Below are positions 20,468 through 31,036 of a DNA stretch of 64,000 nt, piece by piece; positions within the stretch are counted from its first letter, which is position 1; each line of letters begins with the position of its first letter. This DNA is from Escherichia coli 042. GTDB lineage: Bacteria > Pseudomonadota > Gammaproteobacteria > Enterobacterales > Enterobacteriaceae. The stretch lies in assembly GCF_000027125.1 (NCBI RefSeq), contig NC_017626.1; one strand, 5' to 3'. Below the pieces are notes generated by a model that was given only the letters and a program-made list of their open reading frames with translations, searched no databases and was not told the origin of the DNA. A program made the translations under genes and the position numbers.

Positions 20468-21325
20468 ATGAAATACATTGGAGCGCACGTTAGTGCTGCT
20501 GGCGGTCTGGCAAATGCCGCAATTCGCGCCGCCGAAATCGACGCAACCGCGTTTGCCTTGTTCACCAAAAACCAACGTCAGTGGCGTGCCGCACCGCTCA
20601 CGACGCAAACCATCGATGAATTCAAAGCCGCCTGTGAAAAATATCACTACACATCGGCGCAAATTCTTCCCCACGACAGTTATCTGATTAACCTCGGACA
20701 TCCGGTCGCTGAAGCTCTGGAAAAATCGCGCGATGCGTTTATAGATGAAATGCAGCGTTGCGAACAGCTGGGGCTTTCTTTGCTCAACTTCCACCCTGGC
20801 AGCCATCTGATGCAGATTTCAGAAGAGGATTGCCTTGCGCGTATTGCCGAATCCATCAACATTGCGCTGGATAAAACTCAAGGTGTGACAGCGGTGATTG
20901 AAAACACCGCCGGTCAGGGCAGCAACTTAGGGTTTAAATTCGAACATCTCGCGGCGATTATCGACGGCGTGGAAGATAAATCCCGCGTCGGCGTCTGCAT
21001 TGATACCTGCCATGCTTTCGCTGCCGGGTATGATTTGCGTACTCCAGCCGAATGCGAGAAAACGTTCGCGGATTTTGCCCGTATTGTCGGCTTTAAGTAT
21101 CTGCGCGGGATGCACCTTAACGATGCGAAAAGCACCTTTGGCAGCCGCGTTGACCGCCATCATAGCCTCGGTGAAGGCAATATCGGTCATGATGCGTTCC
21201 GCTGGATCATGCAGGACGACCGTTTCGACGGCATTCCGCTGATCCTTGAAACCATCAACCCGGATATCTGGGCAGAAGAGATCGCCTGGCTGAAAGCGCA
21301 ACAAACTGAAAAAGCGGTAGCCTGA
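20468..21325 (+). CDS. nfo: endonuclease IV
   Basis: 285-aa [17 protein letters not shown]... of the xylose-isomerase-like TIM-barrel AP endonuclease family. Confidence 0.9.
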
Positions 21326-21327
21326 AG

Positions 21328-22416
21328 ATGAATAACCGGGAGAAGGAGATCCTTGCAATATTAAGGCGTAACCCGCTGATTCAGCAGAACGAAATTGCGG
21401 ATATGCTGCAAATCAGCCGTTCGCGCGTTGCAGCGCATATTATGGATTTAATGCGCAAAGGTCGGATTAAAGGCAAAGGTTACATTCTCACCGAGCAGGA
21501 ATACTGCGTAGTGGTGGGGACAATCAATATGGATATTCGCGGGATGGCGGATATCCGTTACCCGCAAGCGGCTTCTCATCCCGGTACAATTCATTGCTCG
21601 GCAGGCGGCGTTGGACGCAATATCGCCCACAATCTGGCGCTGTTAGGCCGCGACGTCCATTTGCTTTCAGTGATTGGCGATGACTTTTATGGCGAAATGC
21701 TCCTGGAAGAAACGCGCCGCGCCGGCGTGAATGTCTCCGGCTGCGTTCGTTTACATGGTCAAAGCACATCGACGTATCTGGCAATTGCCAATCGAGACGA
21801 TCAAACCGTGCTGGCGATTAACGATACCCATCTGCTGGATCAGTTGACACCGCAACTACTGAACGGGTCGCGCGATTTACTTCGTCATGCGGGCGTGGTA
21901 CTGGCTGATTGCAACCTGACAGCCGAGGCGCTGGAGTGGGTCTTTACCCTCGCTGATGAGATCCCGGTGTTTGTCGATACCGTTTCAGAATTCAAAGCGG
22001 GCAAAATCAAACACTGGCTGGCGCATATTCACACCCTGAAACCCACTTTACCGGAGCTGGAAATTTTATGGGGACAGGCGATCACCAGCGATGCTGACCG
22101 TAATGCCGCAGTGAATGCGTTGCATCAGCAAGGCGTTCAGCAACTGTTTGTTTATTTGCCCGATGAGTCAGTTTATTGCAGCGAAAAGGATGGAGAGCAA
22201 TTTTTGCTGACCGCGCCAGCGCATACGACAGTAGACAGTTTTGGTGCTGACGATGGTTTTATGGCGGGCCTGGTATATAGCTTTCTGGAGGGAAACAATT
22301 TCCGTGACAGCGCCCGTTTTGCGATGGCCTGCGCGGCAATTTCACGCGCCAGCGGCAGCTTAAACAACCCTACCCTGTCTGCCGATAACGCGCTGTCATT
22401 AGTGCCAATGGTGTAA
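21328..22416 (+). CDS. yeiI: PfkB-family sugar kinase with N-terminal HTH domain
   Basis: 362-aa ORF; carbohydrate-kinase motifs; paralogous to psuK. Confidence 0.8.
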   Translation: MNNREKEILAILRRNPLIQQNEIADMLQISRSRVAAHIMDLMRKGRIKGKGYILTEQEYCVVVGTINMDIRGMADIRYPQAASHPGTIHCSAGGVGRNIAHNLALLGRDVHLLSVIGDDFYGEMLLEETRRAGVNVSGCVRLHGQSTSTYLAIANRDDQTVLAINDTHLLDQLTPQLLNGSRDLLRHAGVVLADCNLTAEALEWVFTLADEIPVFVDTVSEFKAGKIKHWLAHIHTLKPTLPELEILWGQAITSDADRNAAVNALHQQGVQQLFVYLPDESVYCSEKDGEQFLLTAPAHTTVDSFGADDGFMAGLVYSFLEGNNFRDSARFAMACAAISRASGSLNNPTLSADNALSLVPMV

Positions 22417-22422
22417 CAATGT

Positions 22423-22512
22423 TGCCGGATGCGACGCTTAACGCGTCTTATCCGGCCTACAAATCAGGCAATTTCAGCAAGTAAATGTAGGCCTGATAAG
22501 CTTGCGCATCAG
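22423..22512. repeat. REP-like palindromic elements
   Basis: GCCGGATGCGACGCTTAACGCGTCTTATCCGGCCTAC and a second GCCTGATAAGC...GCATCAGGC unit between convergent yeiI and nupX. Confidence 0.55.
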
Positions 22513-22522
22513 GCAATGACAC

Positions 22523-23773
22523 TCAAGCTAAACCAATAAAGAACCCGGCAATGGTCGCACTCATCAAGTTGGAAAGCGTCGCCGCCGCCAGCGCGCGTAA
22601 ACCAAGCTGGGCGATTTCCGGCGCACGGTGTGGCGCAACCGCAGAAAATGCGCCAACCACCACCCCGATAGAACCAAAGTTAGCGAAACCGCACAACGCG
22701 AAAGAAATAATCGCCACGGTTTTAGCATCCAGAGTGCCAGCTGTTTGCAGATAAGGTGAGAAATTGAGGTAAGCGACAAATTCATTTATTGCCAGCTTCT
22801 GTCCAATCAAACTCCCGGCAAGATTCGCATCACTCCAGTCAACCCCCATCACCCATGCCAGTGGAGCCAACAGGTAACCTAAAATGGACTCCAGCGAGGC
22901 ATGTTCAAAACCAAACCAGCCGCCAACGCCGCCGATAATACCGTTAATCAACGCAATTATTGCAACAAATGCCATCACCACTGTCGCCACACCTGCGGCG
23001 ATTTTCAGCCCGGTCATTGCCCCTGTAGCGGCGGCTTCAATAATGCTTTTTGGCGGTGTTTCGGTGAAAGAGAGGTTATTAAAGGAAACCTGCGAAGATT
23101 CCGTAGCCGGGCTTAACAGGCGGGCAAACAAGATCCCGCCGGGGATCGCCATTAACGATGCCGCCAGCAGATATTCCACAGGCACGCCCAGTGCGGCGTA
23201 ACCAATCATTGTCGAACCAGCAATCGAGGCCATGCCACTACAAATCGCTGTAAATAATTCATTGCGATTCAGACGATCGATAAAGGGTTTGACGATTGCC
23301 GGAATTTCGTTTTGCCCGAGGAAAATGGTTGTGACCGCGACGAATGACTCGATCTTGCTGATATTCAATGCTTTCTGGAATATACCGCCGAGAATGCGAA
23401 TTAAGATCCCCATCACACCGATGTAGTAGAGAATACTCACCAGTGCAGTGACGAAGATAATTGCCGGTAATACCCTGAAACCAAAGATAAATCCTGCGCC
23501 ATCAAATAAGGTGTCCATTTTCGGTCCGACCAGAGAACCGAAGATAAAAGCGCTACCTGCATCGCTGTACGCCATCACTTTATGCACGCCAAAAGCGACT
23601 TTTTCTGCGACCCAACGCCCTGGCGGTAACCAAAGCATAATGCCGCCAATCACGACCTGTAACACTAACGCCGCGCCAACGGTACGCAGGCTGATCTTCT
23701 TCTTGTTTACTGACAGCAAAAACGCAATTGCCAGCAATACCACCATTCCCAGAACACTTCTCATGACATCCAT
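22523..23773 (-). CDS. nupX: NupC-family nucleoside permease
   Basis: 416-aa membrane ORF; close paralogue of psuT in the same window. Confidence 0.85.
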   Translation of the reverse strand: MDVMRSVLGMVVLLAIAFLLSVNKKKISLRTVGAALVLQVVIGGIMLWLPPGRWVAEKVAFGVHKVMAYSDAGSAFIFGSLVGPKMDTLFDGAGFIFGFRVLPAIIFVTALVSILYYIGVMGILIRILGGIFQKALNISKIESFVAVTTIFLGQNEIPAIVKPFIDRLNRNELFTAICSGMASIAGSTMIGYAALGVPVEYLLAASLMAIPGGILFARLLSPATESSQVSFNNLSFTETPPKSIIEAAATGAMTGLKIAAGVATVVMAFVAIIALINGIIGGVGGWFGFEHASLESILGYLLAPLAWVMGVDWSDANLAGSLIGQKLAINEFVAYLNFSPYLQTAGTLDAKTVAIISFALCGFANFGSIGVVVGAFSAVAPHRAPEIAQLGLRALAAATLSNLMSATIAGFFIGLA

Positions 23774-23872
23774 AGTTATTATCTCTTCATGTCATTTTGG
23801 GCGACGGCTTTCTGCCCATCAGAAATAGCCGGGCCTGCATCTTGCGATACTGACCCGGCTTGTTATCAACAC

Positions 23873-24814
23873 TTAATGGGTTTTGATGTAGCCGCGCACG
23901 CACTCTTCGACTAATCCCCAGAACCAGTCAGTATCAATAGTGATGCCGACTTTGGTATTAGCGGGCTTGCCAAGAACGCCCAGCTCGTCGCAGACAGTAC
24001 GCCCATAGCAAGGGCCACTGTTGACGTCCACTTCGACGTACATCTCCTGGGTTTTAATGCCATCAGGGTTAATCAAATAACCGATGCAGGTGGCGTCATG
24101 CACCGGGCCGCCAGCCAGGCCGTAGTTTTCGAACTGCGTTTTTAGAGTGAAATTCATGATGTCGCTGAACAGCTCTCCGGCGGGGCCGCCTGCCCTTTCC
24201 ATCCGAGCAATCACGTCCGGGGTGCAAACGGTCTGGTTGGTGAGATCGAGGCCCATCATCACTAATGGAACGCCGGAGGTGAACACCACTCGCGCCGCTT
24301 CCGGGTCCGCAAAGATGTTGAACTCGGCAGATGGCGTGAAGTTGCCAGTACCATAAGCGCCGCCCATCAGTACAATTTCACGGATTTTCGGCAGGATCGC
24401 GGGCTGCATACGCATTGCCACCGCGATATTTGAAAGCGGACCAACCGGCACCAGAGTGATATCGCCATCGCTTGCCATCAGGGTATCAATGATGTATTTC
24501 ACCGCATGAGTGCTTTCTGCCTGGCGGGTCAGCGGCCCGAATACCGGGCCATCCAGTCCGGTTTCACCGTGAATATTATCGGCAACGATTTGTTGACGCA
24601 TAATGGGCTGTGGCATCCCCGCATAAACAGGAACATTAATCTCCAGTTTCTGGCAAACATTCAGGCCATTAATTAATGTTTTATCAAGCGTCTGATTACC
24701 CGCCACAATGGTGATGCCTAATAAATCTATTGCCGGATGTTTCGCGGCCATCATTATGGCAATAGCATCATCATGACCCGGATCACAATCCAGAATAATT
24801 TTTCTCTTTTCCAT
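23873..24814 (-). CDS. rihB: pyrimidine-specific ribonucleoside hydrolase
   Basis: 313-aa ORF with N-terminal DCDPGHDDA nucleoside-hydrolase motif. Confidence 0.9.
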
Positions 24815-24982
24815 TGTTTATTTCCTCTGTTTCCAGTTGCGTTATTTTTTCTACAGCAAAGAAAATTCGACCGGGCCGATGATTGAATCTTAACAACAGC
24901 GTAAGTATGCTAAATATGAGAAATCTCATAGCGGATAAACATCGTGAAAGAAATCCACAATAATGACCTTAAGCAGCAATTG

Positions 24983-25642
24983 ATGAGTGAATCTGCGTTT
25001 AAGGATTGCTTTTCAACGGATGTTTCAGCCGATACGCGGCTGTTTCATTTTTTAGCGCGTGACTACATTGTGCAGGAAGGGCAACAGCCGTCATGGCTGT
25101 TTTACCTGACGCGAGGCCGCGCCAGGCTTTACGCCACGCTTGCTAATGGTCGCGTGTCGCTGATCGATTTCTTTGCCGCCCCCTGTTTTATTGGTGAGAT
25201 TGAGTTAATCGATAAAGACCATGAACCGCGTGCGGTGCAGGCTATTGAAGAGTGTTGGTGCCTTGCGCTCCCTATGAAACATTACCGCCCGCTGTTATTA
25301 AACGACACGCTATTTTTACGAAAACTCTGCGTCACCTTAAGTCATAAAAATTATCGTAATATTGTTTCTTTAACTCAGAATCAATCATTTCCGTTAGTGA
25401 ATCGCCTGGCAGCTTTTATATTACTCTCGCAGGAAGGTGATCTTTATCACGAAAAGCATACGCAAGCGGCAGAGTATTTAGGCGTTTCTTATCGACATCT
25501 TTTATATGTTCTCGCGCAATTCATTCACGACGGTTTATTAATTAAAAGCAAGAAAGGGTATCTAATTAAAAACAGAAAGCAGTTGTCAGGACTGGCACTG
25601 GAGATGGACCCGGAGAATAAATTCTCCGGGATGATGCAGTAA
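24983..25642 (+). CDS. yeiL: CRP/FNR-family transcriptional regulator
   Basis: cNMP-binding-like domain plus C-terminal HTH; start chosen at MSESAFKD (219 aa). Confidence 0.7.
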
Positions 25643-25709
25643 AAATTATTTGCAATAGCGCGATTGCCGGATGCAACATTTAATAAGCGCGTACCTCCGG
25701 CAATGAAAC

Positions 25710-26960
25710 TCAAGCTAAACCAATAAAGAACCCGGCAATAGTCGCGCTCATCAGGTTGGAAAGCGTTGCGGCTGCCAGCGCCCGTAAACCAAGCTGGGCG
25801 ATTTCTGGTGCGCGTTTTGGCGAAATAGCCGAAAATGCGCCAACGACAACACCGATAGAACCAAAGTTAGCAAAACCACAAAGCGCAAAGGAGATAATCG
25901 CAATGGTTTTCACTTCCAGCGCGCCGCCCGTTTGCAGGTATGGGGAGAAGCTCAGGTAAGCGACGAATTCGTTAATCGCCAGTTTCTGCCCAATCAGGCT
26001 ACCCGCCAGGTTGGCATCACTCCAGTCCACACCCATGATCCACGCCAGCGGTGCCAGCACATAGCCAAAAATACTTTCCAGAGAAGCATTGGCAAAACCA
26101 AACCAGCCGCCAATTCCGCCGATAATACCGTTGATCAGCGCAATAATTGCGACAAACGCCATTACCACCGTCGCCACACCAGCGGCGATTTTCAACCCGG
26201 TCATCGCACCGCTCGCCGCTGCTTCGATAAAGCTTTTTGGCGGCGTTTCGCTGAACGACAGATTTTCAAATGTCACCTGCGAAGGCTCGGTTGCCGGACT
26301 AAGAATACGTGCAAACAAAATACCACCAGGGATCGCCATCAGCGATGCCGCTAACAGGTAGTCAATTGGTACGCCCATTCCGGCATAACCAATCATCATC
26401 GAACCAGCAATGGACGCCATCCCGCTACAAATTGCCGTAAATAACTCGTTGCGATTCATGCGATCGATAAACGGTTTTACGATCGCCGGGATCTCATTTT
26501 GCCCGAGGAAAATAGTGGTAACCGCAACAAAAGATTCGATTTTGCTGATGTTGAGAGCTTTCTGAAAAATACTGCCAAGAATGCGGATTAGCAGCCCCAT
26601 CACGCCAATGTAGTACAGCAGGCTGATGAGCGCAGTGACGAAGATAATCGCCGGGAGTACGCGAAAGGCGAAGATAAAGCCCGCGCCATCAAACAGGACA
26701 TCCATTTTCGGCCCGACCAATGAACCAAAAATAAAGGCACTACCGGCATCACTGTAAGACATCACTTTATGAACGCCTAATGCCGCCTGCTCTACCGCCC
26801 ATTTTCCTGGTGGAAAATAGAGCATGATGCCGCCAATGGCGATTTGTAGCAGCAGCGCGGCTCCAACCGTGCGCAAACTGATGCTCTTTTTATTCACTGA
26901 CAACAGAAATGCTATTGCCAGTAACACCACCATCCCCACAACACTTCTCATTATATCCAT
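25710..26960 (-). CDS. psuT: NupC-family pseudouridine/nucleoside transporter
   Basis: 416-aa membrane ORF upstream of psuG and psuK. Confidence 0.85.
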   Translation of the reverse strand: MDIMRSVVGMVVLLAIAFLLSVNKKSISLRTVGAALLLQIAIGGIMLYFPPGKWAVEQAALGVHKVMSYSDAGSAFIFGSLVGPKMDVLFDGAGFIFAFRVLPAIIFVTALISLLYYIGVMGLLIRILGSIFQKALNISKIESFVAVTTIFLGQNEIPAIVKPFIDRMNRNELFTAICSGMASIAGSMMIGYAGMGVPIDYLLAASLMAIPGGILFARILSPATEPSQVTFENLSFSETPPKSFIEAAASGAMTGLKIAAGVATVVMAFVAIIALINGIIGGIGGWFGFANASLESIFGYVLAPLAWIMGVDWSDANLAGSLIGQKLAINEFVAYLSFSPYLQTGGALEVKTIAIISFALCGFANFGSIGVVVGAFSAISPKRAPEIAQLGLRALAAATLSNLMSATIAGFFIGLA

Positions 26961-27053
26961 AATGATTTTCCCTTCATGCCAGTAAACCCGGCGTCAGCGC
27001 CAGGTTTTGGTATGTATGATCAGTACGGGCGACGGCTTTCTGCCCGTCAGAAA

Positions 27054-27992
27054 TTAACCCGCGAGACGCTGGTATTCTTTGGCAATTTCGCTCGCCAGAA
27101 TGGCGTTGTTGAACACCAGTTGGATGTTGGATTTCAGGCTGTCACCGCCAGTCAGTTCAGCAACACGAGCCAGCAGGAACGGTGTGCTTTCTTTACCAAT
27201 AACGCCCTGCTCTTCGGCTTCGGCGACGGCTTGATCTATGGCTGCATTGATAGATTCCTCCGGCATCGCAAACTGTTCCGGGATCGGATTTGCCACCACC
27301 AGGCCACCGTTCAGACCGCTTTGCCATTTCACTGCCATTGCACGAGCAATTTCACTGGCGCTGTCGAGACGAATACTGACTTCAAACGGGCTGGTGCGGC
27401 AGAAAAACGCAGGCAGCGCTTTGGTCTGATAGCCAATTAGCGGTACACCGAAAGTTTCTAAATATTCGGTAGTTAAACCTAAATCGAGAATAGATTTCGC
27501 CCCGGCACAGACGACGGTGACATTGGTGTGCGCCAGTTCTTGCAAATCGGCAGAAATATCGAAGGTATGTTCCGCCCCGCGATGCACTCCACCAATTCCC
27601 CCGGTGGCAAATACTTTAATTCCGGCAAGCGCCGCAATAATCATCGTTGAAGCAACGGTGGTTGCGCCATTTTTCCCTGCGGCAACGACAAAAGGTAAAT
27701 CGCGACGACTAACTTTGGTCACGTTATGCCCTTCACGACCCAGCAATTCAATTTCTTCTTTGCTTAAACCCACTTTCATCACGCCGCCAATAATGGCGAT
27801 AGTGGCAGGTACAGCGCCCTGTTTACGAATAGTTTCTTCAACTTCAATTGCGGTCTGGGCATTTTGTGGGAACGGCATCCCGTGAGAAATAATGGTCGAT
27901 TCCAGCGCCACAACTGGTTTTTTGTTTTTTAAAGCGTCCTGCACTTCCGGGGAAATTTGTAATAATTCAGGGAAAATTTTTAATTCAGACAT
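27054..27992 (-). CDS. psuG: pseudouridine-5'-phosphate glycosidase
   Basis: 312-aa ORF; operon with psuK. Confidence 0.85.
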   Translation of the reverse strand: MSELKIFPELLQISPEVQDALKNKKPVVALESTIISHGMPFPQNAQTAIEVEETIRKQGAVPATIAIIGGVMKVGLSKEEIELLGREGHNVTKVSRRDLPFVVAAGKNGATTVASTMIIAALAGIKVFATGGIGGVHRGAEHTFDISADLQELAHTNVTVVCAGAKSILDLGLTTEYLETFGVPLIGYQTKALPAFFCRTSPFEVSIRLDSASEIARAMAVKWQSGLNGGLVVANPIPEQFAMPEESINAAIDQAVAEAEEQGVIGKESTPFLLARVAELTGGDSLKSNIQLVFNNAILASEIAKEYQRLAG

Positions 27993-28921
27993 TCTGCGTT
28001 CTCCACTAACGATATAACGTTGGCAATCGATAAATCGGGGTTATTGGTGTATTCACAGGAGAGCGCCATTGACGAACATCCCTGTGCGAAACGAACAGAT
28101 TCGGCAAACGGCATTCCGTCTACCCAACACGAAGCAAGTCCCGCCATCATGGCATCGCCCGCTCCGGTAACATTAATGACATTGGTTTTGATCGGCGCAG
28201 ACCAACCACTTTCACCGCTGATATCACTGTAATAAACGCCGTCGCCGCCCATGCTCAATACCAGTCGGTTCAGGCCATGTTGATGGAACCAGGCAGCAAC
28301 TTTTGCCACATCTTCACGCCCTGACAAAGCAATCCCACTCAAGGTTTCCGCTTCAAGGCGGTTTGGCTTCAGGGTGTGGATCTGATTTAGACGGTCGCGC
28401 ACTTTGACACATTTCCATGCCGAAACCGGATCGACAAATACAGGTACATTGGCGGCATTATCCAGAATCCATGCCAGTGCCTCTTCACTGATATTACAGT
28501 CTGCGACAATGACCTTTGCCTTCTGAATAAATTCACGGTGCTGTGCGAGATATTCAGCTGTAATAGCGTTGCTAATATTCATGTCATTTATAGCAACCAG
28601 CATTTCACCGGTATTATCGAGTAATGATAAATAGCTTGACGTATTTTCTCCCGGCACTATCAGGCATTTATCGACATAAACGCCAGATTGATTGGTTTGC
28701 GTTAGCAGCGATTGACCATAAAAGTCACTGCCTACTGCGCTCAGTAGCCAGGCTTTGTTCCCCAGCAACGCCAGGTTTTGTGCAATATTGCGCCCGACTC
28801 CACCAGGCGTAAATTTTATTTTACCTGGATTTGAATCCGCATAATTTAATGATTCATGTGAATATCCGGCGACATCAATATTCGCCGAACCTATAATTAC
28901 GACATAATCCTTTTCGCGCAT
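27980..28921 (-). CDS. psuK: pseudouridine kinase (PfkB family)
   Basis: 313-aa ORF with GAGD motif; 13-nt overlap with psuG. Confidence 0.85.
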   Translation of the reverse strand: MREKDYVVIIGSANIDVAGYSHESLNYADSNPGKIKFTPGGVGRNIAQNLALLGNKAWLLSAVGSDFYGQSLLTQTNQSGVYVDKCLIVPGENTSSYLSLLDNTGEMLVAINDMNISNAITAEYLAQHREFIQKAKVIVADCNISEEALAWILDNAANVPVFVDPVSAWKCVKVRDRLNQIHTLKPNRLEAETLSGIALSGREDVAKVAAWFHQHGLNRLVLSMGGDGVYYSDISGESGWSAPIKTNVINVTGAGDAMMAGLASCWVDGMPFAESVRFAQGCSSMALSCEYTNNPDLSIANVISLVENAECLN

Positions 28922-29306
28922 AGCACGTCCTCTGGTAAAAAATTACCAACCCTTTCAATCCACAAGAATATTGATACTGCAAAGACGGTTTAAACATGTG
29001 TTCATATTTAAACATGTGCTCATAGTATGCATGTTTTACGTAAAGTAAATTACCGCCAGAGAGGCAAAATGGGCAGATTTGAGCAGGCTCACAAAACGCG
29101 ATTAAATGCCTGAATTATAAAAACGGGGAATTTGTGACGGGATGCACAGAACAGGAACAATAAAAAAGGGCAGAAAATAATCTGCCCTTGAGGAAATAAC
29201 CTTAGTGTTTGATGAAAGTTTCAGGTTTCTACTAAAAGATAAAACCATTTAAATTCATAAAATTACATTCACAAACCGGTCATTCTCTTTGCGCGCATCA
29301 AATGTT

Positions 29307-29331
29307 CCAGGGCAGGAAATTTCTGCCCTGG
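29307..29331 (-). terminator. hairpin downstream of fruA (putative fruBKA terminator)
   Basis: CCAGGGCAGgaaatttCTGCCCTGG perfect inverted repeat just after fruA stop. Confidence 0.5.
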
Positions 29332-29344
29332 AACACACCTTTTA

Positions 29345-31036
29345 TTACGCTGCTTTCGCTACTGCGTCCACTTCCGGACGTTTCAGGAAGGCATAGGTCA
29401 GACCCGCCACCAGCGTACCGGCAATAATGGCTACCAGGTAACCCAATACCGGCGTAATCGCGCCAGGGATCAGCAGAACAAACAGACCACCGTGCGGTGC
29501 CATCAGTTTCGCACCAATCGCCATTGAGATTGCGCCAGTCAGCGCCCCACCCACGATACAGCACGGCAGCACACGCATCGGATCACGGGCAGCAAACGGA
29601 ATTGCACCTTCCGAAATAAAGCACAGTCCCAGTACCAGAGCGGCTTTGCCACCTTCCTGCTGTGCTTTGTCGAACTTGCGACGCGCTACCATTGTTGCGA
29701 GCCCCATTGCCAGCGGTGGCACCATACCTGCCGCCATAATCGCAGCCATCGGGCCATAGGTTTGAGTACTCAGCAGACCCACACCGAACGCGTACGCTGC
29801 TTTGTTTACCGGACCGCCCATGTCAGTACACATCATGCCACCGAGGATCGCCCCCAGCAGAACCGCATTCGCAGTCCCCATGGTCTGCAGCCAGTGAGTC
29901 AACCCTTCGAGAATGCCAGCAACCGGTTTACCGATCAGGTAGATCATCGCCAGACCGACCACCAGACTGGAAATTAGCGGAATGATCAGGATCGGTTTCA
30001 GCGCCTCCATACTCTGTGGCAGTTTCAATTGCGTACTGATTAACTTCGCAATGTAACCAGCCAGGAAGCCCGCAATAATACCGCCAATGAAGCCAGAACC
30101 AGTGCTGACCGCCAGCATACCGCCAATCAGACCCGGCGTGAGACCCGGACGATCGGCAATGGAGAAGGCAATATAACCTGCCAGTACCGGCACCATCAGC
30201 GCAAAGGCTGAACCACCACCAATCTGCATCAGCGCCGCTGCCAACGTACCCGGCTCTTTAAACGCTTCGATACCAAAAGCAAAAGAAAGCGCGATACACA
30301 GACCACCTGCAACGACCATCGGCAGCATGTAAGAAACGCCCGTCAGCAAGTGACGGTAAGCGCCTGCACTCTCTTTCTTACCTTCAGTGGTCGCTGTTTG
30401 AGTTTTGCCCGCCGGTTCATACGGCGTTGCTTCAGCAACCGCTTTATCCAGTTCCTGCGCGGTTTTCTTCAGCGCCAGACCGGTAGAGGTGCGATACATC
30501 GGTTTACCAGCAAATTTCGCCAGATCCACTTCAATATCTGCCGCCACAATCACCAGATCCGCTGCGGCTACTTCTTCGGGGGTGATTGCATTACCCGCGC
30601 CAACCGAACCACGGGTTTCAACTTTCACCCACCAGCCACGTTTTTTCGCTTCGGTTTCAATGGCTTCAGCCGCCATAAAGGTGTGTGCTACGCCAGTCGG
30701 GCAAGCAGTCACCGCAACTACGCGTTTCGGACCGCTGGCGGCAACCGGTGCTGGCGCAGCGACCGGCGCAGTGTAAGGTTTCGCATGGCCTTTGGCTTCA
30801 CTCAGGAACAGCTCAGGGTGCGCAACTGCCCGGGAAATATCGCCCAGCCAGACATTTTTACCGTTCAGCGCGCTGTCGTTCGGGATGGAATCACCGAGAA
30901 CAATCGCCATTTCAGCGTCATTCGGATTGTCGATGATTTCCAGTTTTGCTTTTCGCGCCGCCGCGCCCAGCAGGGTCTTCGCCATATAGGCGCGTGCCTG
31001 ACCGAGATTAGCGTCAATAATCAGCAGCGTTTTCAT
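29345..31036 (-). CDS. fruA: PTS fructose-specific EIIB'BC component
   Basis: 563-aa ORF with duplicated IIB domain and membrane IIC domain. Confidence 0.9.
   Translation of the reverse strand: MKTLLIIDANLGQARAYMAKTLLGAAARKAKLEIIDNPNDAEMAIVLGDSIPNDSALNGKNVWLGDISRAVAHPELFLSEAKGHAKPYTAPVAAPAPVAASGPKRVVAVTACPTGVAHTFMAAEAIETEAKKRGWWVKVETRGSVGAGNAITPEEVAAADLVIVAADIEVDLAKFAGKPMYRTSTGLALKKTAQELDKAVAEATPYEPAGKTQTATTEGKKESAGAYRHLLTGVSYMLPMVVAGGLCIALSFAFGIEAFKEPGTLAAALMQIGGGSAFALMVPVLAGYIAFSIADRPGLTPGLIGGMLAVSTGSGFIGGIIAGFLAGYIAKLISTQLKLPQSMEALKPILIIPLISSLVVGLAMIYLIGKPVAGILEGLTHWLQTMGTANAVLLGAILGGMMCTDMGGPVNKAAYAFGVGLLSTQTYGPMAAIMAAGMVPPLAMGLATMVARRKFDKAQQEGGKAALVLGLCFISEGAIPFAARDPMRVLPCCIVGGALTGAISMAIGAKLMAPHGGLFVLLIPGAITPVLGYLVAIIAGTLVAGLTYAFLKRPEVDAVAKAA

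Follow-up and report, generated by a model that had tools for sequence, protein, structure and literature searches.

How far can two neighboring copies of a gene diverge and still recombine with each other? This question is raised by nupX and psuT, two transporter genes that lie as direct repeats, 3187 bp apart, in a stretch of 64,000 nucleotides (nt) of Escherichia coli 042 DNA (contig NC_017626.1; this whole stretch is called the window, and gene positions are counted along the 1251-nt open reading frame, or ORF). An initial annotation, made without database searches, had regarded the pair as a local duplication that could seed recombination. We consider it very likely that nupX and psuT are old, diverged paralogs of the CNT family that still exchange sequence, rarely, by crossover and conversion, the window itself showing only short patches at the nupX 3' end. 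This reading builds on direct observation of how the locus is laid out, of how far the copies have diverged, of their family and their synteny in several genera, and of hybrid genes and conversion tracts. It makes the pair a natural illustration of the divergence (79% DNA identity) at which paralogs still recombine, with exchange confined to the better-conserved 3' part. The repeats and the genes between them are arranged as follows.

22523..23773, minus strand: nupX coding sequence, 416 amino acids, CNT-family nucleoside transporter; promoter-distal, after rihB
23774..25709, no strand: spacer between the repeats, holding rihB and yeiL; lost with half of each transporter gene upon crossover
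23873-24814, minus strand: rihB, between the repeats; gene family assigned by profile match
24944-25642, plus strand: yeiL, between the repeats; gene family assigned by profile match
25710..26960, minus strand: psuT coding sequence, 416 amino acids, CNT-family transporter; last gene of psuK-psuG-psuT

The two 416-amino-acid translations first placed at 22523-26960 are both minus-strand ORFs at exactly these coordinates, and both genes are intact in the window.

Divergent direct repeats and natural psuT::nupX hybrids

At the protein level, NupX and PsuT are identical at 367 of 416 positions (88%; 95% positives) without a gap, and the similarity is far above chance because the BLASTP E value is 0 over these 416 gapless positions. 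The 49 amino acid differences are densest in the N-terminal quarter (17 of the 49 in residues 1-104). The DNA, in contrast, differs at 259 of 1251 nt (79.3% identity), with 50, 18, and 191 differences at the first, second, and third codon positions. By the Nei-Gojobori method, the proportion of synonymous differences (pS) was 0.62, corresponding to a synonymous divergence (dS) of ~1.3, which is near saturation, while the nonsynonymous divergence (dN) was 0.076 and dN/dS was 0.058. The earlier wording "collinear and highly similar" fits these numbers, but "near-identical" does not, with 88% identity in protein but 79% in DNA and dS at ~1.3. The longest stretch at which the two copies match in register is short and terminal.

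22521-22552 versus 25708-25739, minus strand: longest in-register exact identity, 32 bp, made up of the last 30 nt of the ORF including the stop codon and 2 nt beyond it

We searched 5,426 complete E. coli genomes, to which all population counts refer, with a bridging query in which 1100 nt of yeiI are followed directly by 1100 nt of psuG/psuK, for which a full match requires both within ~1.6 kb. Five of the 5,426 genomes, about 1 in 1,000, had one transporter gene between yeiI and psuG. In all five, it was a single in-frame gene of 416 codons with a psuT 5' part and a nupX 3' part, and rihB and yeiL were missing from the yeiI-psuG interval. The breakpoints were distinct in all five genomes and spanned gene positions 757 to 1203 (SY019, 757-779; EH10-18-47, 925-947; CFSAN004176, 965-977; E203449, 1084-1088; and 11PC, 1198-1202), and the 3' 40% of the gene contained every one of them (probability by chance, 0.0097). 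Two lay inside 23-bp identical runs that are among the longest of the respective parental pairs. Since the hybrid halves are 98 to 100% identical to extant psuT and nupX alleles, and each half of the EH10-18-47 hybrid equals the K-12 allele, the crossovers were recent and independent. The hybrid proteins differ from PsuT by 0 to 13 residues; the 11PC product is PsuT exactly, followed by a nupX-type stop codon and flank, which is the layout of E. albertii. A hybrid repeat, the loss of the spacer, and halves matching the parental alleles are what unequal crossing-over leaves behind, and these five genomes have all three, while the window keeps its two genes separate. The suggestion that the duplication could seed recombination is thereby substantiated at the population level, by the hybrids with rihB and yeiL deleted and by the conversion tracts of other lineages described below; the pair itself raises no new question. 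For annotation, it matters that hybrid and truncated copies carry only generic NupC/NupG transporter labels.

Because the genes are repeats, the hybrids and tracts might be artefacts of assembly or alignment, an explanation that we consider extremely unlikely. It would draw on the facts that three of the five hybrids come from records that carry the label whole genome shotgun chromosome, that the strain with a 165-bp tract (SCPM-O-B-8794, see below) is a draft assembly, and that the hybrids were seen in assembled sequences. However, repeats that are 79% identical and share runs of at most 38 bp are far too diverged to collapse in modern assemblers, and for two of the hybrids the record is labelled a complete genome. 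No two breakpoints are the same, every fusion is in frame, and the flanking DNA is colinear. Moreover, the rihB-yeiL segment has no match anywhere in 8 of the 5,426 genomes, an observation compatible with its genuine loss.

Deletion by unequal homologous recombination between direct repeats is well known from rrn operons, insertion sequence (IS) copies, and rhs elements. There, as here, the spacer and the equivalent of one repeat are lost and a hybrid repeat is left. The nupX/psuT substrate differs in being only 79% identical, with runs no longer than 38 bp, and its events are confined to the most similar, 3' part; the low identity and short runs account for the rarity of the crossovers. The recombination behavior of the pair is thus of a known kind, namely unequal crossover and partial concerted evolution. 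No paper describing recombination of nupX and psuT was found in the literature searched, which is weak evidence of absence.

Conversion tracts and short patches at the 3' ends

We compared 21 nupX and 21 psuT alleles (alignment columns beyond 1029 correspond to gene position +3) with the genes of other genera. In SCPM-O-B-8794, a divergent Escherichia strain, nupX carries psuT sequence from position 1050 to 1214, where 137 bp match exactly and 165 bp match if one mismatch is allowed. The pair of a Citrobacter freundii-like contig is 70 to 83% identical in the 5' half and 88 to 97% identical in the 3' half. Neighbor-joining trees on Kimura two-parameter distances were accordingly incongruent along the gene: for positions 1-660, the sequences grouped by paralog, with the C. 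freundii-like nupX joining the Salmonella nupX at 97 to 98%, while for positions 661-1245, Citrobacter nupX and psuT grouped by genus at 94%. The Escherichia nupX and psuT genes grouped together solely in the last 150 nt (1093-1245), at 73%. A quartet test against the C. freundii-like pair gave a by-genome signal of 35:3 in the 3' half (P = 9e-5); we judged this to be largely Citrobacter's own homogenization, set it aside as evidence for Escherichia, and used the sub-segment trees instead. Fully converted 3' ends were sought with chimeric queries (nupX flank with the psuT 3' 180 nt, and the reverse), and these never beat the unconverted baseline of ~92%. A nupX-like tract at 900-1020 in the psuT of CFT073-type strains and E. 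albertii, suggested by sliding windows, was discarded, as the site polarity had no convincing cluster (9 versus 3, in one bin).

For the window's own pair, the initial annotation had proposed a nucleotide alignment to look for gene-conversion tracts. That alignment contained no long recent tract; the psuT-like patches in it were short and lay at the nupX 3' end. Across 153 diagnostic sites defined from the 42 sampled alleles, the window nupX has no psuT states, and the window psuT has four isolated nupX states that do not cluster. The patches and the flanks around them are listed here.

22649..22655, minus strand: small patch in nupX resembling psuT; the adjacent synonymous sites at gene positions 1119, 1122, and 1125 are all in the psuT state
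22507..22577, minus strand: psuT-like "type B" nupX 3' terminus, gene position ~1197 to +16 after the TGA stop; polymorphic in E. coli
22472..22522, minus strand: REP-like insertion of 51 nt, directly after the nupX stop; bounded by a ATTGCCTGA repeat
22423-22471, minus strand: ancestral nupX 3' flank, after the REP-like insertion; shares homology with the 3' flank that follows "type C" psuT alleles
25664..25709, minus strand: psuT 3' flank with REP-like hairpin; in-register similarity with the nupX flank for ~29 nt past the stop

The 1119-1125 patch is also present in 118UI and is not present in K-12. At the terminus, both loci vary. The common nupX end, GCG TAG TGCGCGATTTATGAG (given also as GCG TAG TGCGCGATTT), was carried by 16 of the 21 nupX alleles in the sample and by E. 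albertii, while the nupX genes of the window, K-12, 118UI, and CB8671 end in GCT TGA GTGTCATTGCC, as do most psuT alleles. Conversely, psuT is polymorphic at the same place, its alternative form ending in TAA and continuing into a flank that is homologous to the one common at nupX. The window-type nupX end was present in 1268 of the 5,426 genomes (23%), together with the 51-nt insertion; SCPM-O-B-8794 has the TGA terminus without the insertion. Among genomes lacking the window-type end, the best match listed for the window nupX end was, in several cases, their psuT and not their own nupX. From ~1197 onward, four of five substitutions relative to the type-A consensus go toward psuT; a count by eye of eight out of eight psuT-directed differences had been made against a single allele, SCU102, and was replaced by this figure. 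From the sequences compared, we conclude that the type-B terminus is probably a short interlocus conversion tract, copied in one direction or the other, and its presence at nupX is the reason for the 32-bp identical run in the window. Such paralog-derived patches mimic imported polymorphism in pan-genome and SNP (single-nucleotide polymorphism) pipelines, at a locus that is already diverse.

An alternative is that the copies are independent and that purifying selection on the transporter fold accounts for their similarity without any exchange. A dS of ~1.3 with dN/dS at 0.058 is what one would expect under such independence, no clustered paralog-state signal was present over most of the window genes, and the quartet signal of the 5' half is star-like (19:19:16); the run-length test, considered below, points the same way. 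Nevertheless, this alternative is very improbable. It is already contradicted at the species level by the five hybrid deletion genomes, and it would leave the 165-bp tract of SCPM-O-B-8794, the homogenized 3' halves of the C. freundii-like pair, and the complex stop-codon and indel variant that is common to both loci and polymorphic at both to be explained in some other way.

Several observations nevertheless weigh against continued exchange, or limit how far it can be read from these data. The hybrids are known from assemblies, and the loss of rihB and yeiL in them is established at the yeiI-psuG interval. In three of the five, the crossover interval spans only 5 to 13 bp when measured against the closest parental alleles sampled, so long identical runs may not be a strict requirement. 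Within the ORF of the window pair, the 30-bp run is no longer than a codon-position-aware permutation predicts (P = 0.088). The excess of psuT-directed substitutions at the nupX 3' end over the rest of the gene was not significant (Fisher P = 0.29), and the case for the terminal tract is therefore carried by the shared stop-codon and indel variant and by the genome matches. The trees were built by neighbor-joining on partly saturated sites, with deep groups reaching only 65% and 42% bootstrap. Finally, support for the Escherichia grouping, 73% in the last 150 nt, is down to 53% when the whole 3' half is used and type-A nupX alleles are included, and an old 3' homogenization in Escherichia is for this reason suggested with moderate confidence.

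We hypothesize that the events at this locus reflect, most likely, ordinary homologous recombination between diverged direct repeats. Strong purifying selection together with synonymous saturation would make most of the repeat length a poor recombination substrate, given that the copies have diverged to that extent. The C-terminal part is the most conserved in the protein, and its DNA therefore keeps the longest identical runs; runs of 20 to 38 bp in this better-conserved 3' part would permit rare homologous exchange. Such exchange could take two forms: (a) unequal crossing-over, which would create an in-frame fusion of a psuT 5' part with a nupX 3' part and remove rihB and yeiL, or (b) non-reciprocal conversion, which would move patches from one copy to the other. 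Exchange in the 3' part would restore identity there and so favor further exchange. A crossover would cost the cell rihB, yeiL, and NupX function but leave a full-length transporter under the psuKG promoter, which would explain why the hybrids are viable yet are rare singletons. We infer that the exchange is of the RecA type (RecA-dependent), and the fitness effect and the function of the hybrids belong to the same inference.

Gene conversion between bacterial paralogs has been mentioned for the tuf genes (PMC6053082). The concerted evolution of tufA and tufB likewise involves non-reciprocal exchange between dispersed paralogs and grouping by genome. Unlike the tuf copies, which are nearly identical, nupX and psuT exchange patchily and in the 3' part only, strongly in Citrobacter and weakly in Escherichia, and they have otherwise diverged to saturation. 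Because they are also direct and close, unlike tuf, a crossover deletes the spacer.

Age of the pair and module loss across genera

Is the pair a recent copy, an old duplication, or the product of gene import? The C. freundii-like contig carries psuK-psuG-psuT-yeiL-rihB-nupX-yeiI, the same order as E. coli. In Leclercia adecarboxylata, a Salmonella enterica, and one further host, the order is fruA-yeiL-rihB-nupX-nfo, occupying the same fruA-nfo slot. A single-transporter arrangement, psuK-psuG-psuT-yeiI, was found in E. albertii, C. werkmanii, C. youngae, Citrobacter sp. FP75, and Leclercia UBA3338, while in Superficieibacter, yeiL-rihB-nupX is located elsewhere than the psuT-yeiI slot. The rihB genes are 91 to 94% identical between genera, which is ortholog level, and a protein tree placed a psuT-type group (bootstrap 42%) apart from a nupX-type group (65%). 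Because of the C. freundii-like order, the shared fruA-nfo slot, the rihB identity, and the protein tree, we read the pair as having arisen by an old duplication at this locus, after which one or the other of the two modules was lost differentially, a conclusion drawn from comparing sequences. The local duplication assumed from the outset is thus confirmed, and the same two-module order in the C. freundii-like contig marks it as old rather than as a recent copy. The duplicated unit is larger than the ORF, including the ribosome-binding region, the conserved leader element described below, and ~30 to 45 nt of 3' flank.

It could be argued instead that nupX was acquired horizontally in a yeiL-rihB-nupX cassette that landed beside psuT, which would make the two genes xenologs. 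In favor of this, E. albertii and several Citrobacter have no cassette between psuT and yeiI, Superficieibacter has it elsewhere, the GC content of yeiL is low (0.41-0.46), and E. coli nupX sits on a long branch, being no closer at the nucleotide level to the C. freundii-like nupX than to psuT. Against it stand the C. freundii-like contig with its exact two-module order, the occurrence of the module in one and the same fruA-nfo slot in Leclercia, in Salmonella, and in a further host, and rihB identity at the ortholog level, and 11PC demonstrates that an E. albertii-like layout can arise by crossover from the two-module state. We therefore regard the xenolog explanation as very improbable, and transfer of yeiL-rihB-nupX into E. 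coli as a cassette was dropped on the grounds of that layout, that slot, and the rihB identity. Starting instead from an old duplication, single-transporter species such as E. albertii may have arisen by the same crossover as the hybrids.

Other members of the locus have histories of their own. An older paralog pair is formed by yeiI (21328-22416, plus strand; a winged helix-turn-helix domain and a PfkB kinase domain) and psuK (27980-28921, minus strand; pseudouridine kinase), with ~40% protein identity, and yeiI was found solely alongside the psu module in the genera examined. The GC content of yeiL compares with ~0.52 around it, and this gene is 70 to 75% identical between genera, versus the 91 to 94% of the neighboring rihB.

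Transporter identity, the conserved leader element, and variants of the locus

Both proteins belong to the NupC/CNT transporters, as first proposed. Pfam PF01773, PF07670, and PF07662 (Nucleos_tra2_N, Gate, and Nucleos_tra2_C) matched both over their full length and above the gathering scores, and TIGR00804 was matched across model positions 1-401 with 500.2 bits for nupX and 516.8 bits for psuT, against a cut-off of 442. The pair also matched solved CNT structures over the full length, namely the Neisseria wadsworthii CNT (5L26 and related entries; E = 8.6e-131) and Vibrio cholerae vcCNT (3TIJ; E = 2.2e-125), both homologs of ~50% identity. The motifs GQNE, GQKLAINEF, and CGFANFGS are present and are the same in both paralogs. 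These correspond to the substrate-site motifs of vcCNT in helical hairpin 1 (HP1), HP2, and transmembrane helix 7 (TM7), respectively; in HP1, the window pair has GQNE where the solved CNTs have GQTE.

The pair itself is textbook E. coli annotation. The window proteins are each 99.8% identical in amino acid sequence to their K-12 orthologs, NupX (YeiJ, P33021) and PsuT (YeiM, P33024; CNT family TC 2.A.41), with conserved synteny, and RefSeq annotates syntenic E. coli records in the order yeiH, nfo, yeiI; nupX, rihB; yeiL; psuT, psuG, psuK; fruA. NupX and PsuT are treated as paralogs and as the two CNT members that E. coli has besides NupC (PMC11241209), in agreement with the initial identification of a known pair flanking rihB and yeiL, and its verdict of "not novel" and of low interest was right. 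NupX takes up uridine and cytidine weakly, with low efficiency, whereas uptake of uridine, cytidine, and xanthosine by PsuT was absent in assays, and the pseudouridine role of PsuT derives from operon context (PMC11241209). The locus is read as a nucleoside-salvage locus of two modules, in which psuK-psuG-psuT would serve pseudouridine and yeiL-rihB-nupX pyrimidine nucleosides, with the transporters presumably taking up the corresponding substrates. In production strains, psuT is deleted and pseudouridine re-uptake is thereby blocked (PMC13090712), which gives the locus some relevance to the engineering of such strains.

Upstream of each transporter gene lies a copy of a conserved leader element.

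23799..23826, minus strand: leader element copy 1 (ATTTCTGATGGGCAGAAAGCCGTCGCCC), 25 nt upstream of the nupX start
27027..27054, minus strand: leader element copy 2 (ATTTCTGACGGGCAGAAAGCCGTCGCCC), beginning at the final base of the psuG stop codon and 66 nt upstream of the psuT start

This 28-nt element (ATTTCTGAYGGGCAGAAAGCCGTCGCCC) is identical at 27 of 28 positions between the paralogs, versus 79% for the coding DNA and saturated synonymous sites. Its 19-nt core, GGGCAG-N6-GTCGCCC, is conserved ahead of genes of the nupX and psuT types in E. albertii, Citrobacter, Salmonella, Superficieibacter, and one further host, while Leclercia has variants of it, and RNAalifold predicted a 5-bp hairpin with two compensatory pairs. 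An Rfam scan of 21000-29500 returned no family, and a scan for consensus promoters and terminators gave nothing useful on operon structure. The leader motif is the sole item here that might lead to something new. We tentatively propose, as a joint suggestion that we hold to be less probable than its opposite, that the nupX/psuT repeat is a recurrent recombinational switch across Enterobacteriaceae, in which the layouts of E. albertii and some Citrobacter would be old crossover products (11PC reproduces the E. albertii layout), and that, separately, GGGCAG-N6-GTCGCCC is an undescribed cis-regulatory element of pseudouridine and pyrimidine nucleoside uptake genes.

Allelic variation at the locus is extensive. 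The window had no exact match among the complete genomes, the best being 98.0% identical over the mosaic locus and 99.0 to 99.2% elsewhere, and its combination of a 118UI-like nupX with an SCU102-like psuT is new and differs from that of K-12. Across 21328-28921, E. coli allelic divergence is unusually deep and the locus is a mosaic of haplotypes, with allelic dS of up to 0.54 for psuT and 0.30 for nupX (the latter versus SCPM-O-B-8794). The CFT073-type alleles are 85% (yeiI) and 88% (psuK) identical at the protein level, about the distance of E. albertii.

Some lesions of the locus have other causes. An internal nupX deletion of 1135 bp with 3-bp microhomology, found in 971 of the 5,426 genomes (CFT073-type), turns the gene into a pseudogene while rihB, yeiL, and psuT are kept; being internal and unrelated to psuT, it was ruled out as a paralog-mediated event.

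L002 2925-3085: CFT073 nupX remnant; the deletion corresponds to window ~22572-23706

The psuG gene is annotated as frameshifted in CFT073. Strain 8600 (L003 7347-9096) has an IS1A-associated deletion running from rihB into psuG, which removed yeiL and psuT, and strain CE0007a (H195) has an ISVsa5 element at yeiI. A NupX variant of 397 amino acids (P0036, 45 contigs) lacks 19 residues (GSLVGPKMDTLFDGAGFIF) between two FIFG motifs, which looks like an in-frame loss between short direct repeats inside the gene. Searches with 21000-29500, 22523-26960, and 23790-25700 also placed six or seven matches to this chromosomal locus on plasmid-classed records.

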